Source: an uncultured bacterium
GTDB taxonomy: Bacteria > Bacteroidota > Rhodothermia > Balneolales > DATFMH01
Assembly (NCBI GenBank): GCA_963783355.1
Contig: CAWANF010000015.1
Coordinates: 86,021 to 150,020, forward strand
Direction of reading: 5' to 3'
DNA: 64,000 nucleotides
Below, piece by piece: positions 46,341 to 55,713 of the stretch. The stretch's first letter is position 1. Every line of letters begins with the position of its first letter. The notes under the pieces are model-generated. The model was not told the origin of the DNA. It saw only the letters and a list, made by a program, of their open reading frames with translations, and did not search any database. Made by a program: the position numbers and the translations under genes.

Positions 46341-49196
46341 TTGCACGACTCTATTATTATCCGCGGAGCACGCGAGCATAACCTTAAAAATATAGATATT
46401 AATATTCCGCGCGACCGGTTTGTGGTGTTAACCGGTTTATCGGGTTCGGGTAAATCTTCCCTGGCTTTTGACACCATTTATGCCGAAGGCCAGCGACGTT
46501 TTATGGAATCGTTATCGGCCTATGCGCGACAGTTTCTGGGAATGATGGAACGTCCGGAAGTTGATTTTATAGACGGATTATCTCCTGTAATATCTATTGA
46601 TCAAAAAACCACAAGCCGTAATCCTCGTTCAACGGTTGGCACCGTAACCGAAATTTATGATTTTCTGCGCCTTTTGTATGCCCGGGTTGGTATTCCCTAT
46701 TCTTACTTGTCCGGCAACAAGATGGAAAAACAAACCACCGACCAGGTTGTGGATAATATTTTAAAAATGCCGGAAGGCACCAAAGCTTATTGCCTGGCAC
46801 CGGTTGTTCGTGGACGCAAAGGTCATTATCGTGAGCTGTTTGAACAAATTCAGAAACAGGGTTTCATCAGGGCAAGAATTGACGGCGAATTCGTTGAAAT
46901 TGAAAAAGGCATGCAGATCGACCGGTATAAAACACACAATATTGAAGTGGTTGTCGACCGGTTTGTAATCAGCCAAAAGAGCGACTCGCGCATTTCGCAA
47001 AGTGTACAAATGGCGCTTGAAATGGCCGACGGAACGGTAATTATTTGTGTTCAGCAAGGCGGAAACGATTACCACGATCACCTGTTTTCCCAAAAATTAT
47101 TCGATCCGGAAAGCGGCCTTGCTTATGAAGACCCTGCTCCCAACCTATTTTCTTTTAATTCCCCATTTGGAGCATGCCCTAAATGTGACGGGCTCGGATA
47201 TCGTTACGATGTCGATCCGGATCTAGTCATTCCGAATAAAAATTTATCTGTTCGTGAAGGTGCTATTCGATTTCTTGGTGTACCACGTGAAATTTTTGTA
47301 TTCAAGCAGATTCAGGCTGTACTTAAGACATTTGGGCTGGATTTTGATTCTCCTGTTAAGGAATATCCACAGGAAGCCATCGACACTCTTATATTTGGCG
47401 GAGGCGAGCAAAAATATGATGTGAGTTATGATTTCAATGACAACAGCGTGACTTACAAACATACCTATGACGGTCTGGCGCTCATGATACGCCAGCATTA
47501 CGAAGGTAAGGGCAAAGCAAAACAGCGCGAAAAAGCCAAAGCTTTCATGAATAAGGTATTATGTGATGAATGTCATGGCGGCCGGCTCAACAAGGAGGCT
47601 CTTTCTTATAAAATTGATCGGTTTTCCATCAACGAACTGGTCACGATGGATATCCGGGCTTTACGGGATACCGTCAATAAACTTGATCTGAATGAACGGC
47701 AAAGAATTATCGGTTCACAGGTCATTAAAGAAATAAGAGATCGCCTGGATTTCCTTATTAATGTCGGTTTGCATTATTTAAGCCTGGATCGGGAAGCACA
47801 AACCCTTTCGGGCGGAGAAGCACAACGTATTCGTCTTGCCACACAAATAGGTACGCAATTGGTTGGAGTGTTGTACATTCTTGATGAACCCAGTATCGGC
47901 CTGCATCAAAGAGATAATCTTAAACTCATCGACTCTCTTGAAACACTGCGGGATCTTGGAAACAGTGTTGTGGTTGTAGAACACGACCGGGAAACCATAG
48001 AACATGCCGATTATGTGATTGATATGGGTCCCGGTGCCGGCGATTATGGAGGCTATATTGTAACAAAGGGAAAACCCAATGAATTAGATTCCAAATCAAT
48101 GACTGCCAAATATCTGCGGGATGAAATGGTCATTAAAATCCCGGAGAACAGGCGGCCGGGAAACACAAAAAATATCCAATTACTGGGTGCCCGCGGACAT
48201 AACCTGAAGAATATCGATTTGGAAGTTCCGCTTGGCAAATTTATCAGTGTGACCGGTGTTAGTGGCAGTGGAAAGAGCTCATTAATCAACCAGACCCTCA
48301 TTCCAATACTCAGTAACTACTTTTATAATTCAAAAGCAGCGGCTTTGCCCTACGATGATATCAAAGGGATTGATAACATCAACAAGATAATTTCCATCGA
48401 TCAAAGTCCAATTGGCCGAACACCACGTTCAAATCCGGGAACATACACTAAAGTATTTGATTATATCCGCCAGCTTTTCGCCGAACTGCCGGAAGCTAAA
48501 ATCCGGGGCTATGGTCAGGGGCGTTTTTCCTTCAATGTTAAAGGCGGGCGTTGTGAGACGTGCCAGGGTGATGGGCTGAGAAAAATCGAAATGAATTTTC
48601 TGCCCGATGTTTACGTAACCTGCGAAACTTGCAATGGAAACCGGTACAACCGGGAAACGCTCGAAATTTTTTATAAGGGTAAAAATATCGCTGACGTACT
48701 GAATATGTCGGTTAGTGAAGCTTTAGAATTTTTCGATGCGGTCCCCCGAATAAAACGTGTTCTGAAAACACTCGATTCCGTAGGTTTGGGATATATCACA
48801 ATCGGACAAAGCAGCACGACTCTTTCAGGTGGGGAAGCCCAGCGAATCAAACTAGCCAGAGAGCTTTCAAAAATCGGCACCGGAGACACGTTATATGTTA
48901 TGGACGAACCTACGACGGGCTTGCATTTCCAGGACGTCAATATGCTGGTGAATGTGGTTCAGAAACTGGTTAACAAAGGAAACACCGTTATTGTTATTGA
49001 ACATAATATGGATTTGATAAAAGCTGCAGACTGGATCATCGATATTGGTTATGAAGGAGGCAACCAGGGTGGATATATCATAGCCACAGGAACACCCGAA
49101 GAAGTGGCTTCCGATTCAAAAAGTTATACCGGGCAATACCTGAAAAAAGAGTTTGAACGTATCAGCCATCCAATAAAAACCAGTTTGGCAGAATAA
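46341..49196 (+). CDS. uvrA: Excinuclease ABC subunit A
   Basis: [31 protein letters not shown], two ABC modules, Zn fingers. Confidence 0.98.
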
Positions 49197-49376
49197 TTTT
49201 TTCATTCTTTTGGTAAAAGATAGAAAATAGAATTATTATACGCGTCTGTGTTGTGCCTGATCCATTTTCTAGAACAGGCTTTATACATAAAAAACTAACG
49301 ACAGATCCTTTAAATAAGCTTTTAATTAGATAAGAGTTACCTTGTCGATTGACAGCAAACTCCTTATTTTGACGCG

Positions 49377-49931
49377 GTGTCATTCTTTCGTAAACATATA
49401 ATCCGTCTTTTTACCATCCTGATTATTCAGGCTGGATTTTTGGTTTGCCTGTTGCCTTCGCAACAACAAAACCAGACAACGCGGCATTTTACGAACTGGC
49501 TGAGCAGCTTCATAACGGGTAAATCGAACGATCCTATCAAACAGCAGGTTCGGGAACTCGGGGTTTCCAACCATGCTATTTCCCAACTCATGGCCAGGGC
49601 ATCGGAACTCATCAGTAAGCATGCGGATCAATTCAAAATCCCCTTTAAAAAGCAAAATCCATCTGAAAAGGATGTCTATAAAGTGTTATTGGTTGAATGG
49701 AACCTGTATCATCAGTCCACAGCAACTAATAATATGGTACTTTTGGAGCAGACCAAAAGTCAGAATTTATTTAACCCCGACAAACATCCGACCGTACCGG
49801 TTCTTTCTTCTGTTCTGATTCAAAAACAACCAACGAATTTTACGGAACATTATTTAGAAACACGGGATGGCCGGTTCATCAATACTTCAGCCAAACCCCT
49901 TCGCAGCGGAATTGCTATTGGCGCACCCTAA
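49377..49931 (+). CDS. uORF of secDF with N-terminal signal/TM segment; candidate translation-arrest peptide
   Basis: GTG start, hydrophobic N-terminus, C-terminus KPLRSGIAIGAP-stop, co-oriented 121 nt before secD. Confidence 0.65.
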   Translation: MSFFRKHIIRLFTILIIQAGFLVCLLPSQQQNQTTRHFTNWLSSFITGKSNDPIKQQVRELGVSNHAISQLMARASELISKHADQFKIPFKKQNPSEKDVYKVLLVEWNLYHQSTATNNMVLLEQTKSQNLFNPDKHPTVPVLSSVLIQKQPTNFTEHYLETRDGRFINTSAKPLRSGIAIGAP

Positions 49932-50052
49932 GCGCTATGAAACAAATCAATCCATTTTTGATACTTCTGACGAAGTATCCGTAAACTGGCTGTGTCTGTC
50001 ATTTTCATAGCCGGTTCAACTCATTATTAATATTAAAAGTTAGTAGGATTCA

Positions 50053-51864
50053 ATGAAAGGTAACGGAACAAAAATAGCATTTATTCTGGCGTTTCTGATT
50101 ATATCAGTATACTATCTCCAGTTTTCTGTTCGCTATTGGCTGACCATGCGATACGCCAATAACTTACCTCAAACGCAGAAACAGGAATACCTGGAAAAGA
50201 ACCAGAAAAAAATTGATGGTTTACGTGATAATATCCTGAATCTCGGCCTCGACTTACAGGGCGGGATGCACGTAACATTACAACTGCAAACACCTCAACT
50301 GCTCCTCGATTTGGCACGCGAGCATGCCGATACGACTCTGAGAAATGATATGGGCTCAGCGGAAAAAATTGCAGATAAAAACAATACCGACCTTGTTGAC
50401 GAATTCGTAAAGATTTTCGAACAACGTCATCCGGATGGGAGACTTAGCCGCTATTATCGATCTGAATCAGATAATATTACCCGGAGATCATCCAATGCCG
50501 AAGTTGCTTCTTTCCTTAAAAAACAACGGAATGCGGCGGTCGGACGCGCTATCCAGATTATTCGTACCCGTATCGACCGTTTTGGTGTAAACGAACCCTC
50601 GATTGTAAAACAGGGGCAAAACAGGATCGCTGTTGAGCTTCCCGGTGTAGAAGATGAACAACGTGTACGCCGCCTCCTGAAAGGTACGGCGCGTTTGGAA
50701 TTTCACCTGGCGGCTGATCCTCAGGAACTGGCAAGTTCACTGAAACAGATTATCAGTTTTTATCAAACGGATACTACGGGTACAAAAAACGATACCTCTG
50801 CAACGCAGAACAATCCCCTTTTAAAAGTATTTGTTCCACAGGGACGAGGAATCATTTTTGGCTCTGCAACCGCACGTGATACGGCTGAGGTGAATAAACT
50901 GTTGCATAAAAGAGCGGTTCAGGATTTACTGCCACACGATACCGAACTGATGTGGACCGCGAAAAGTGAATTCTCCGACAAAAACGGGAATAAATATTTC
51001 AACCTTGTCGGTGTGAAAAAACAAGTTGAACTTTCCGGTGATGTAATTACCGAAGCTCGTCCGACATTCGACCGTTATACTAATGCTGCGGAAGTATCGA
51101 TGACCATGAACCGGGAAGGAGCACGCAAATGGGCGCGGATAACCGGTTCGAATATCGGAAAACCCATTGCCATTGTACTCGATGGTTATGTTTATACTTA
51201 CCCAAATGTTATTACTAAAATTAGTGACGGACGTTCTTCTATCACAGGTTTGAAGAATGTGCAAGAATCTGAAGACCTTGTGAATATTCTGCTTTCCGGT
51301 GCCCTTCCGGCTCCGCTGGATATCGTTGAAGAACGTACCGTAGGGCCAACACTCGGACAGGCTTCCATTCATTCCGGTTTCTATTCCACCCTGATTGGTT
51401 TATTCATTGTGACCATTTTTATGATCGTATATTATCACACCGGTGGAGGTATTGCCGACCTTGCCCTCATATTTAATATTCTATTTATACTCGGGATATT
51501 GGCGGCCTTCAAGGCCACACTCACCTTGCCGGGTATAGCGGGTATCGTGTTAACCATTGGTATGGCGGTCGATGCAAACGTGCTCATCTTTGAGCGGCTT
51601 CGAGAGGAAATAGGAGCTGGAAAAACCATTCGTGCTGCTGTGGACAGTGGATACTCAAACGCGATGAGCGCTATCCTAGACTCCAACATTACCACCTTCC
51701 TGACGGGAGTGATTCTTTACAGTTTCGGCGCCGGGCCTATCAAGGGTTTTGCCGTAACGTTAATGGCCGGTATTGTTTCATCACTCTTCACGGCTATCAT
51801 AATCTCCCGGGTTGTTATTGACTACCTGATTAGGGATAAAACAAAAACAGTCAATATTGGTTAA
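50053..51864 (+). CDS. secD: Protein translocase subunit SecD
   Basis: LGLDLQGG, RIDRFGVNEP, VGPTLG, LTLPGIAGIVLTIGMAVDANVLIFER. Confidence 0.97.
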   Translation: MKGNGTKIAFILAFLIISVYYLQFSVRYWLTMRYANNLPQTQKQEYLEKNQKKIDGLRDNILNLGLDLQGGMHVTLQLQTPQLLLDLAREHADTTLRNDMGSAEKIADKNNTDLVDEFVKIFEQRHPDGRLSRYYRSESDNITRRSSNAEVASFLKKQRNAAVGRAIQIIRTRIDRFGVNEPSIVKQGQNRIAVELPGVEDEQRVRRLLKGTARLEFHLAADPQELASSLKQIISFYQTDTTGTKNDTSATQNNPLLKVFVPQGRGIIFGSATARDTAEVNKLLHKRAVQDLLPHDTELMWTAKSEFSDKNGNKYFNLVGVKKQVELSGDVITEARPTFDRYTNAAEVSMTMNREGARKWARITGSNIGKPIAIVLDGYVYTYPNVITKISDGRSSITGLKNVQESEDLVNILLSGALPAPLDIVEERTVGPTLGQASIHSGFYSTLIGLFIVTIFMIVYYHTGGGIADLALIFNILFILGILAAFKATLTLPGIAGIVLTIGMAVDANVLIFERLREEIGAGKTIRAAVDSGYSNAMSAILDSNITTFLTGVILYSFGAGPIKGFAVTLMAGIVSSLFTAIIISRVVIDYLIRDKTKTVNIG

Positions 51865-51891: not shown

Positions 51892-52821
51892 ATGAGAATT
51901 TTTGAAAACGCCAATTACCCAATGATAGATATCCGGAAGATAACTTATACCATCTCCGGAACCCTGTTTCTTATAGCTGTATTGGGTATACTTATCAGAG
52001 GTTTACAATACGGTATTGATTTTAAAGGCGGTAAGGAATTCGTTATTGAATTTCAACATGATATCACGGTAACAAAAACCCGTACAGCCTTAACCAAACC
52101 TCTTGGAAAAGAACCGGAAATCAAGCTATTTGGTGCGAAAAATGAAATTTTACTGCGCACCAGTGCTCCCGGAAATGAAACACAAATCCAGGATGTCATA
52201 CTTTCAACACTGAAAAAGGCATATCCCGATAATAAGGCACAAATATTGAAATCTGATATTGTCGGGCCGCGATTTGCTAAAAGTTTGAAACTTGGAGCGT
52301 TATATTCCGTTATCACATCTGTATTTGTGATTTTCATTTACGTTCTTATTCGATTTCGAAAGTGGACGTATTCGGCAGGAGCTATAGTTGCTCTTGTACA
52401 TGATGTAACAATTACGCTTGGGTTGTTCACCATTTTTGATAAAATATTACCATTCAATTTGGATTTAAATGAGTCGCTTATAGCGGCATTATTGACGATT
52501 TTTGGTTATTCTATTAACGATACGGTGGTGGTTTTTGACCGTATCCGTGAAAATCTGAATATCTTCAAGACCGATCCATTTCAGCAAACAGTCAATAAAA
52601 GTATCAATGATACCCTGAGCCGTACAATCATTACTTCAAGTACTACGATGTTTGTGGTTGTTGTACTGTTTCTTTTTGGCGGACAAGTACTGCAGGGATT
52701 TGCACTGGCATTAATTATTGGTATTTTTGTAGGTACCTATAGTTCTATTTTTATTGCTAGCGCATTAGTAGTAGATTTTGAAAGAATACTGGCCAAGCGT
52801 AAGAAAAAAGTTTTAAAATAA
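51892..52821 (+). CDS. secF: Protein translocase subunit SecF
   Basis: GIDFKGG, VGP, GYSINDTVVVFDRIRE, TLSRTIITS, GTYSSIFIA. Confidence 0.97.
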   Translation: MRIFENANYPMIDIRKITYTISGTLFLIAVLGILIRGLQYGIDFKGGKEFVIEFQHDITVTKTRTALTKPLGKEPEIKLFGAKNEILLRTSAPGNETQIQDVILSTLKKAYPDNKAQILKSDIVGPRFAKSLKLGALYSVITSVFVIFIYVLIRFRKWTYSAGAIVALVHDVTITLGLFTIFDKILPFNLDLNESLIAALLTIFGYSINDTVVVFDRIRENLNIFKTDPFQQTVNKSINDTLSRTIITSSTTMFVVVVLFLFGGQVLQGFALALIIGIFVGTYSSIFIASALVVDFERILAKRKKKVLK

Positions 52822-54588: not shown

Positions 54589-55713
54589 ATGGAAGCAGCA
54601 TTTCAGGTAAGGTATCGGATCACCGTACTAAAAGGTGAAAATATCGACCAGAAAATTCAAGATATTTGCCTGGAACAAAGTGTGGAGATGCCGGCAGATG
54701 TATTGCCAGCCGACATTCGTAATCACATTGTTGGGAAACCGGTTGCTGTTGAGAAAATAAATCCAACTTTGTTTGAAGTTATCATTGAGTGGCCGGTTGC
54801 CAACATTGGTGACGAGATAACACAGTTCATTAACATCCTTTTTGGCAACATTTCCCTAAAGCCCGGTATTCTCATCATTGGGGTGGAATGGGAAAAGCTT
54901 GACCATCTCTTTTACGGGCCAAAATTTGGTATCCGTAAGATTAGGCAAATGTGGGATATTCAGGATCGTGCCCTTTCCAGTACCGCATTGAAGCCTATGG
55001 GATACACGGCGAAGCAAATCGGCGAATTATGTTATGAATTTGCATTGGGTGGCATCGACATCATCAAAGATGATCATGGGCTTGCCAATCAGACTTATGC
55101 CCCTTTTGCCGATCGGGTTGCATCCTGTGTTGAAGCCATCCAAACGGCTGCCCGGGAAACAGGCCGAAGATCCCGGTATTTTGCCAATATCACCTCTTCA
55201 CCATCCAAAACAATTGAGAATTATATTCTTGCAGCTGAATTAGGTGCGGATGGCGTCCTCTTTGCCCCACAATTAAGCGGATTCGATATTCTTCAGGAAT
55301 TAACAAATATGGAGATCGATTTGCCCATTATGGCTCATCCGAGTTTTTCAGGGAGTTACGTCATTCATAGGAATCACGGTTTCACTCCATCTTTTTATTA
55401 CGGGGAACTTTGGCGTGCTTTGGGTGCCGACTTCGTCATTTATCCCAATTCGGGCGGACGATTTTCATTTACTCCTGATGAGTGCCAGCATATCAATAAT
55501 GCAGCCAGGAATGCAATGGCATCTTTTAAACCAACGTTTCCCACACCTGGCGGCGGGATAGACCGAAACAAGATTCGAAAATGGATATCGTTATATGGAA
55601 ATGATACCGTCATGCTTATTGGAGGCAGTCTTTATCAACATCCGTTAGGTATCCGTAAGGCTGCTGAAGAAATACAGTTTGAGCTGGAAAAAAATGAATT
55701 CGATCATTCCTGA
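54589..55713 (+). CDS. RuBisCO-like protein (form IV, KDDH motif)
   Basis: ICLEQSVE, FGNISL, GPKFGI, ALKPMG, GGIDIIKDDHGL, AHPSFSG, PTPGGG, IGGSL. Confidence 0.88.
   Translation: MEAAFQVRYRITVLKGENIDQKIQDICLEQSVEMPADVLPADIRNHIVGKPVAVEKINPTLFEVIIEWPVANIGDEITQFINILFGNISLKPGILIIGVEWEKLDHLFYGPKFGIRKIRQMWDIQDRALSSTALKPMGYTAKQIGELCYEFALGGIDIIKDDHGLANQTYAPFADRVASCVEAIQTAARETGRRSRYFANITSSPSKTIENYILAAELGADGVLFAPQLSGFDILQELTNMEIDLPIMAHPSFSGSYVIHRNHGFTPSFYYGELWRALGADFVIYPNSGGRFSFTPDECQHINNAARNAMASFKPTFPTPGGGIDRNKIRKWISLYGNDTVMLIGGSLYQHPLGIRKAAEEIQFELEKNEFDHS

Follow-up and report, generated by a model that had tools for sequence, protein, structure and literature searches.

A candidate secretion-monitoring arrest peptide with a Gly-Ala-Pro-stop ending encoded upstream of secDF in a Balneolales bacterium

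A candidate arrest peptide upstream of secDF

What might a small open reading frame (ORF) of no recognizable family do directly in front of a genome's sole copy of secD? This question is raised by a 64,000-nucleotide (nt) stretch of DNA, here called the window, from an uncultured member of the Balneolales (GenBank assembly GCA_963783355.1, contig CAWANF010000015.1, positions 86,021 to 150,020 of the forward strand). The ORF encodes 184 amino acids (aa) at positions 49377-49931 of the forward strand, begins with GTG and has the C-terminus RSGIAIGAP followed by TAA (49929-49931). We consider it likely that this ORF represents the Balneolales form of the secretion-monitoring arrest peptides described as uDF_NAP-stop. 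The locus comprises the following features.

49377..49931, forward strand: upstream ORF, a candidate for a Sec-monitoring arrest peptide (uDF_NAP-stop type; from the ORF list and homologues)
49932..50052, forward strand: untranslated spacer of 121 nt between the upstream ORF and secD, with local hairpins at 49960-49979 and 49984-50016 and complementarity of 49934-49942 to 50003-50011
50053-51864, forward strand: secD, 603 aa (Pfam and NCBIfam; TIGR01129, 443.7 bits)
51892-52821, forward strand: secF (Pfam and NCBIfam; TIGR00966, 303.6 bits)

The class was described by Fujiwara, Tsuji, Yoshida, Takada and Chiba (2024, Nat Commun 15:2711; PMC10987492) from a screen of more than 30,000 GTDB genomes. 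Its six clusters hold 396 ORFs from 400 genomes, which belong to three orders of Bacteroidota (GTDB r202); the ORFs precede secDF, carry a localisation signal and end in Pro. Peptidyl-tRNA made up 30-50% of the product of one member in the E. coli PURE system and, with B. subtilis ribosomes, over 50%. The arrest was gone once a fusion replaced the stop codon, mutations at positions -3 and -1 affected stalling, and toeprinting located the stalled ribosome with the stop codon in its A site (PMC10987492). The main text of that paper, in the passages drawn on here, names neither the three orders nor the tested species.

The window ORF resembles this class in several respects. It lies directly upstream of secD on the same strand and had zero family matches in Pfam or NCBIfam; it has a predicted N-terminal signal/transmembrane segment, a long spacer and an Ala-Pro-stop end; and half of its relatives end exactly in I-N-A-P. 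It differs in having Gly182 instead of Asn at position -3, and its stop codon is TAA. The layout and sequence characters of the class other than Asn at -3 are found in it, which by sequence makes it a G-A-P variant of uDF_NAP-stop. We file it as a class member because half of its close relatives do carry Asn at this position.

An earlier note on this stretch, made from the sequence alone, had described a 184-aa ORF ending in GIAIGAP-stop 121 nt before secD, and its coordinates agree with ours. It was right that Pro-stop motifs had been reported, as uDF_NAP-stop and a second class, uA_NSP-stop, are found in PMC10987492. The novelty that it had seen in an Arg-less motif falls because the uDF_NAP-stop class is in print, and the basic claim of an arrest peptide upstream of secDF is likewise already published. 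Compared with the passages of PMC10987492 drawn on here, the present analysis adds the Gly variant, a bias towards UAG, a fixed spacing (which Supplementary Fig. 33b of that paper may show), a presumably leaderless promoter and homology across the taxonomic class. Those passages mention no stop-codon bias, 11-residue motif or leaderless promoter, and a term search of the paper, as far as its text was covered, gave no hit for RF1, RF2, UAG, 'release factor' or TnaC. In the literature searched we found no later paper on the class beyond the 2024 paper and preprint; the LudP preprint concerns the D-G-M-K-stop class and a 2025 EMBO J paper the RAPP/RGPP type, according to the parts of these sources that were covered.

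Conservation and distribution

A protein search found a homologue of the upstream ORF in 25 of 41 related genomes, and secD lay directly 3' of it at all 25 loci. At 24 of these the predicted C-terminus reads P-[LFM]-x-x-[GD]-x-[AS]-[IV]-[GNR]-A-P right before a stop codon, one of them (L025) having the atypical ending A-L-I-S-G-Q-F-V-N-A-P. At the 25th locus (L005; G003:C1, about 1467944-1468500) the ending P-L-A-S-G-I-A-I-G-A-P-stop is intact and stands off-frame after a net 1-nt shift within the linker; since this is a 5-contig assembly, an indel error is as likely an explanation as a broken gene.

Searching 401 genomes of the phylum with a profile gave 69 matches, all in the window's order except one, which was rejected as spurious (E = 0.009, inside a 1188-aa frame). 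Sixty loci were fetched and seven duplicates dropped, leaving 53 distinct loci, all from Balneolales. The motif and a downstream secD are present at all 53, with spacers of 87-489 nt. The earlier note had proposed to look for conservation among ORFs upstream of secD, and its expectation held: C-terminal motif and synteny are kept despite divergent middles (53/53 loci). In a much larger profile search, of 1.84 billion cluster representatives, 181 members were recovered at E <= 0.001. Among the best 150 of these 181, 143 end in A-P and the other seven look truncated or shifted; the 143 endings are G-A-P (82), N-A-P (54), H-A-P (5), C-A-P (1) and S-A-P (1). The relatives bear the taxon labels Balneolales, Balneolaceae and Cyclonatronaceae. 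NCBI puts the order in Balneolota; its GTDB placement we take to be in Bacteroidota, which is consistent with the phylum-level genome sampling.

secD itself was detected in 200 of 201 genomes sampled across the phylum, and the DNA upstream of it was examined in 40 non-Balneolales genomes, 13 of the same taxonomic class and 27 others (one locus with 362 nt only). All 13 loci of the same class (L067-L079) carry an ORF of 167-200 aa before secD, with a like N-terminal pattern and a C-terminal Pro. The endings are P-M-G-P, P-L-G-P, P-Q-G-P, A-L-G-P or R-A-P. When 11 of these ORFs were compared with the Balneolales alignment profile to profile, the probability was 94.7% (E = 5.8e-8) over residues 1-94, and on this sequence comparison the upstream ORFs of the other orders of the class are homologous to the Balneolales family. 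Class-wide, the C-termini have no more in common than the final Pro and a small residue at -2.

Two of the 27 other genomes (L098, G229:C15; L105, G167:C1), both from one family of another class, have signal-peptide ORFs of 116 and 119 aa before a fused secDF. These ORFs end in I-S-[TP]-N-A-P followed by TAG. As judged from sequence, this is an unrelated protein with an identical ending and stop codon.

The C-terminal motif and the stop codon

A183 and P184 are invariant in the 52 aligned sequences. Of the 143 representatives ending in A-P, 136 have Pro at -11, 124 have Gly at -7 and 140 have Ile at -4, while the approximately 50 residues before the motif have zero consensus in the alignment. 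By sequence, the conserved motif extends beyond N-A-P to 11 residues, and the conservation of this protein motif is far above chance. Position -3 is Gly at 26 and Asn at 26 of the 53 loci, the one other relative ending in I-R-A-P, and Gly and Asn interchange within single genera. Over the same loci, the last four positions of the frame are written with four different Pro, four Ala and three Ile codons, and with both codons for Asn or three for Gly. Since the motif codons turn over synonymously, selection acts on the peptide and not on the RNA. Within the window genome, 70 of 3154 genes in crude gene calls end in Pro, and a single one, the upstream ORF, ends in G-A-P or N-A-P.

The stop codon is TAG at 47 of the 53 loci, TAA at five (window included) and TGA at one; the 3154 crude gene calls of the window genome have TAA in 1713, TGA in 1006 and TAG in 435 cases. 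TAG is also used at 10 of the 13 same-class non-Balneolales loci (TAA 2, TGA 1) and at both Bacteroidia-type N-A-P loci. The base after the stop codon is C at 21 of the 53 loci. UAG is read only by release factor 1 (RF1), and for this reason the UAG preference points to RF1. That TAG is kept beside saturated synonymous sites argues for selection.

Predicted structure and linker length

Four regions can be told apart within the ORF and its stop codon.

49407..49454, forward strand: L11-L26, the hydrophobic core of the signal anchor at the N-terminus, following R5, K6, H7 and R10 (AlphaFold2 helix 3-25)
49458..49730, forward strand: small conserved helical domain, residues ~28-118, presumably periplasmic (motifs F-T-x-W-L, K-A-S and E-W-N-x-Y)
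49731..49895, forward strand: linker, residues ~119-173, non-conserved in sequence, predicted disordered, conserved in length (from predicted local distance difference test scores (pLDDT), alignment and spacing)
49896..49931, forward strand: candidate arrest motif P174-L-R-S-G-I-A-I-G-A-P184 and TAA (from conservation, synonymous turnover and stop-codon bias)

The hydrophobic stretch that follows the positive N-terminus has 16 residues, and the positive charges suggest an N-in/C-out topology of the signal anchor, in which F4, R5 and G20 are almost invariant in the alignment. The AlphaFold2 model, computed with the 52-sequence alignment as input, has a mean pLDDT of 65. It predicts a transmembrane helix at residues 3-25 and a helical domain with helices at 28-43, 53-63, 68-81 and 97-131 (pLDDT ~70-90), whereas linker residues 119-170 stay below 50. 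W41 of the helical domain is invariant, and L42, A75, S76, F86 and W108 are almost so. A comparison of this domain with PDB folds gave no match at E <= 0.001, only generic helical bundles.

Signal and motif are well separated, with 158 residues from L26 to P184 (class criterion: more than 30). The linker varies freely in sequence and hardly at all in length. From W108 to the C-terminus there are 74.6 ± 1.4 residues (range 70-79), with 73-76 in 117 of 130 representatives; in these representatives the distance from W41 to W108 within the folded part ranges from 54 to 77. Of 52 Balneolales ORFs, 51 have the W-L motif 138-145 residues from the C-terminus; in 12 of 13 other ORFs of the same class this distance is 138-144. 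A linker that is free in sequence and fixed in length would be what a force sensor needs, and ~75 residues might span about one exit tunnel plus one translocon channel. The distance from signal to arrest site was also analysed in PMC10987492 for the new classes, those upstream of secDF included, with per-class plots in Supplementary Fig. 33b. Because the toeprint of the published class member (PMC10987492) places the stop codon in the A site, we predict a like stall at the window locus, where the A site would hold the stop codon and the P site the Pro184 codon (49926-49928).

Promoter and translation start

The upstream ORF appears to have a sigma-70-like promoter of its own.

49342..49370, forward strand: promoter-like element, with -35 TTGTCG at 49342-49347, a 17-nt spacer and -10 TATTTT at 49365-49370, 6 nt before the GTG start

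When the 50 nt upstream of each ORF start were compared, a TATATT/TATCTT/TATTTT box was found at 51 of 52 related loci; at 50 of the 52 its end lies 5-11 nt ahead of the start codon. TTG stands at 17-18 nt spacing from the -10 box at 31 of 52 loci. In a control region 300 nt upstream, a TAnnnT hexamer occurred at 19 of 52. GTG serves as start codon at 16 of the 52 loci, the window among them. A promoter just before the start codon would imply a leaderless or near-leaderless mRNA, and these sequences make a first cistron with little or no leader probable. The 11 public sequencing runs that were listed are all of metagenome DNA, with no RNA run among them.

The 40 nt 5' of the secD ATG are A/U-rich and contain 2-6% G, and with so little G there is no Shine-Dalgarno sequence to mask. 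The phylum is known to start translation without one. At most of the 53 loci (window 50053-50064) secD starts with ATG-[AC]AA-GG[ACT]-AA[CT] (M-K/Q-G-N), with exceptions that include L007 and L021-L025. This pattern puts an AAGGA-like purine run right after the start codon.

Comparison with known arrest peptides

TnaC of E. coli ends in Pro-stop, pauses at termination and is followed by a long untranslated spacer, where the paused ribosome blocks Rho. It has 24 aa, is cytoplasmic, senses free tryptophan and terminates at UGA with RF2. The window ORF shares with it the Pro-stop end and the long untranslated spacer before the presumably regulated gene, whereas Rho dependence is known for TnaC and is only proposed for the window locus. 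The uA_NSP-stop class (PMC10987492), encoded upstream of secA in Sphingobacteriaceae, is similar in its termination-type arrest, its C-terminal Pro and its dependence on positions -3 and -1. It differs in standing before secA, in its length of about 100 aa, in Ser at -2 and in belonging to another protein family.

SecM, VemP and ApdA/ApdP resemble the candidate in having an exported leader, an arrest relieved by export and a gene placed before that of a Sec component; VemP, ApdA and ApdP are likewise encoded ahead of secDF genes. In contrast to the termination-type arrest considered here, theirs takes place in elongation: SecM stalls with Pro-tRNA in the A site and the RAPP type at the third residue of its motif. 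What they control is mostly a second secDF copy, whereas the window ORF precedes the only secD match that a search of its genome returned. Unmasking of a Shine-Dalgarno sequence has been shown for SecM, MifM and VemP, whereas the window locus is without one.

Membership in either of two elongation-type groups was rejected. The SecM class, as given in the part of PMC10987492 drawn on here, has the motif FxxxxWIxxxxGIRAGP, whereas the window has secD and not secA downstream and its Pro is followed by the stop codon; the resemblance of G-I-A-I-G-A-P to G-I-R-A-G-P of SecM is probably a coincidence. The RAPP-like (RQH/ApdA/ApdP) motif (R/Q/H)-(A/G/D)-(P/G/S)-(P/G) is absent from the last residues of the window ORF. 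Endings with R-A-P occur elsewhere in the family, as I-R-A-P in one of 53 relatives and as R-A-P-stop in some non-Balneolales relatives of the same class.

How a pause might reach secDF

If the upstream ORF is an arrest peptide, its own promoter would drive a leaderless mRNA of the upstream ORF, secD and secF, with the ORF as first cistron, and the N-terminal signal anchor would target the nascent chain to SecYEG. With P-L-x-x-G-I-A-I-G-A-P, the final 11 residues of the chain, inside the upper part of the exit tunnel and peptidyl-Pro-tRNA in the P site, hydrolysis by the release factor would be hindered and termination would pause, as shown in vitro for one N-A-P member and extended here to the window by analogy. 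The fixed linker would set the helical domain ~75 residues from the peptidyl transferase centre, and export of this domain to the periplasm or its folding there would pull on the chain and end the pause. Poor export would lengthen the pause and, in analogy with SecM and VemP, raise the expression of secDF.

Our leading guess for the last step, made tentatively and by analogy, is a TnaC-like output in which the paused ribosome would shield the long G-poor spacer from premature transcription termination. C exceeds G in all 53 spacers, with a median C/G of 1.72; in the controls this was true of 46.6% of 753 co-directional intergenic regions of the window genome and of 23 of 52 regions upstream of the ORF. 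T-tailed terminator-like hairpins occur in 25 of the 53 spacers versus 3-11 in ten shuffled sets. The genome encodes rho, with a match above the family cut-off (580 bits, 524-aa frame). A second Rho-like match, of 428.9 bits in a 421-aa frame, falls below the cut-off; the Rho matches lie on contigs at C6:74529-75665 and C5:499080-500198.

A second route, which we think unlikely, would follow SecM and VemP: RNA structures specific to each lineage would hide the secD start and be opened by the paused ribosome. Such a mechanism has been shown for SecM, MifM, VemP and one arrest peptide encoded upstream of secDF (PMC10987492), and the spacers are more structured than shuffled sequences. In one Balneolaceae genus the 10 aligned spacers have three common local hairpins, the first directly after the stop codon with compensatory changes, yet an invariant 4-bp CCUU/AAGG pairing is the only conserved helix that reaches the start region in this alignment. 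When a stall was simulated at the 53 loci by keeping all nt up to 10 beyond the stop codon single-stranded, the energy needed to open the secD start changed by a mean of only 0.38 kcal/mol, the effect being negative in many loci and above 1 kcal/mol in 17 of 53; at the window it drops by 1.4 kcal/mol. The pause site lies 87-489 nt from the start codon, and the G-poor 40 nt before it lack a Shine-Dalgarno sequence that could be hidden. On the inconsistent outcome of this constraint folding, unmasking of the secD start as a general mechanism was rejected. Also rejected was a family-wide hairpin right after the stop codon (mean -7.6 versus -5.7 kcal/mol in shuffles, with lineage-dependent structures).

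Taken to its full extent, the proposal would describe a force sensor acting at the stage of termination, a picture that we offer as speculation with rather low expectations. The linker would be a ruler that places the periplasmic domain just beyond SecYEG while the ribosome stands at a UAG read by RF1, and folding or export would pull the Pro-tRNA ester into a releasable state. The pause would raise secDF in the manner of TnaC, keeping Rho or terminator hairpins off a G-poor spacer that has no Shine-Dalgarno sequence, and this design would be common to the taxonomic class with its x-G-P, R-A-P and [G/N]-A-P ends.

Export-sensing arrest peptides are models for the dialogue between nascent chain and ribosome and for the readout of mechanical force, and in the sources drawn on here the Pro-stop members have so far received a first in vitro description only. 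The Balneolales locus and its relatives provide a large natural data set, with a Gly/Asn swap at -3, a preference for UAG and a linker conserved in length, and they are of further value for a probably leaderless first cistron and a downstream gene without a Shine-Dalgarno sequence. The locus thereby bears on force-sensitive termination and on how a pause may be transmitted where no ribosome-binding site can be unmasked.

Alternative interpretations of the upstream ORF and its spacer

Several observations weigh against reading the ORF as an arrest peptide that controls secDF. Published stalling concerns an N-A-P member in which mutation of -3 weakened the arrest, and the window has Gly at this position; downstream regulation was tested on a different class only, according to the passages of PMC10987492 drawn on here. 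The window stop codon TAA is the minority type (5/53), and the pause at the window may be weaker if UAG matters. The counts of stop codons and spacing ignore shared ancestry. With a mean effect of only 0.38 kcal/mol, unmasking as in SecM is not predicted. The window spacer has no C skew (22 C, 20 G) and no terminator-like site, which makes the termination guess weakest at the window locus itself. Finally, a conserved helical domain could mean that the mature protein has a function of its own.

This last point leads to an explanation that we regard as improbable, namely that the ORF encodes an ordinary small exported or membrane-anchored protein, perhaps an accessory of SecDF, whose C-terminus acts in the mature protein and causes no pause. 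Conservation of the helical domain across the whole taxonomic class would fit such a protein, as would the published stalling not coming from a Gly-variant member, and neither a family nor a fold match assigns the ORF a function. However, a motif of the mature protein would leave unexplained why UAG is preferred, why a distance of 75 residues is fixed across a disordered, non-conserved linker and why Pro is the very last residue (143 of 150 representatives). A class member with a like ending does stall in vitro (PMC10987492), and YajC, the known small partner of SecDF, is encoded elsewhere in the genome. Identity of the ORF with YajC (PF02699) was rejected, as the ORF has no Pfam match and the YajC of this genome (98.4 bits) is on another contig.

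The earlier note had combined the arrest peptide with an RNA switch in the spacer. Its three helices are present at the positions that it gave: a 9-bp helix of GCTATGAAA (49934-49942) with TTTCATAGC (50003-50011), formed by nine Watson-Crick pairs; an 11-bp helix of AACTGGCTGTG (49984-49994) with CATAGCCGGTT (50006-50016), with 11 pairs of which two are G-U; and the hairpin GATACTTC/GAAGTATC at 49960-49979. Dinucleotide shuffling of the spacer produced a perfect inverted repeat of at least 9 bp in 14 of 500 cases, so that such a repeat is uncommon by chance. For the 176-nt region the folding z-score is -2.05, a stability equalled by 4 of 200 shuffles. The helices are real and mildly unusual. 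According to the note, a pause at G-A-P-stop would cover 49934-49942, which would indeed fall within the footprint of a ribosome paused there, and so free the 11-bp helix, which excludes the 9-bp helix, and tune secDF.

Ensemble folding of 49900-50080 speaks against this. In the free RNA the pair probabilities are 0.999 for the 11-bp helix, 0.98 for the hairpin at 49960-79 and 4e-6 for the 9-bp helix, and forcing the latter makes the ensemble 9.1 kcal/mol worse. Since the 11-bp helix is already formed without a ribosome, a ribosome on 49934-49942 would flip nothing; being local, this helix should also form first during transcription. In line with the note's remark that neither helix visibly covers the secD SD, folding showed that neither extends to the secD start region, and the helices overlap no terminator: in the window spacer we found no terminator-like site, and promoter-like matches were at chance (3 versus 2.6 expected). 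The closest relatives (54% and 50% protein identity) have spacers of 163 and 169 nt that are unrelated in sequence and cannot be aligned with that of the window, which leaves no conservation and no basis for covariation. On these folding energies and non-conserved spacers we reject the switch, to which we give next to no chance, and of the earlier proposal we keep the arrest peptide, in view of layout, motif, synteny and the published class.

Neighbouring genes

Two further loci of the window are added here for orientation.

46341-49196, forward strand: uvrA, 5' of the upstream ORF (identity by Pfam and NCBIfam)
54589-56173: possible locus of a RuBisCO-like protein

At the latter, a 374-aa protein has a match limited to the RuBisCO large chain catalytic domain (95.5 bits), and it overlaps the start of an ORF with a cupin domain.

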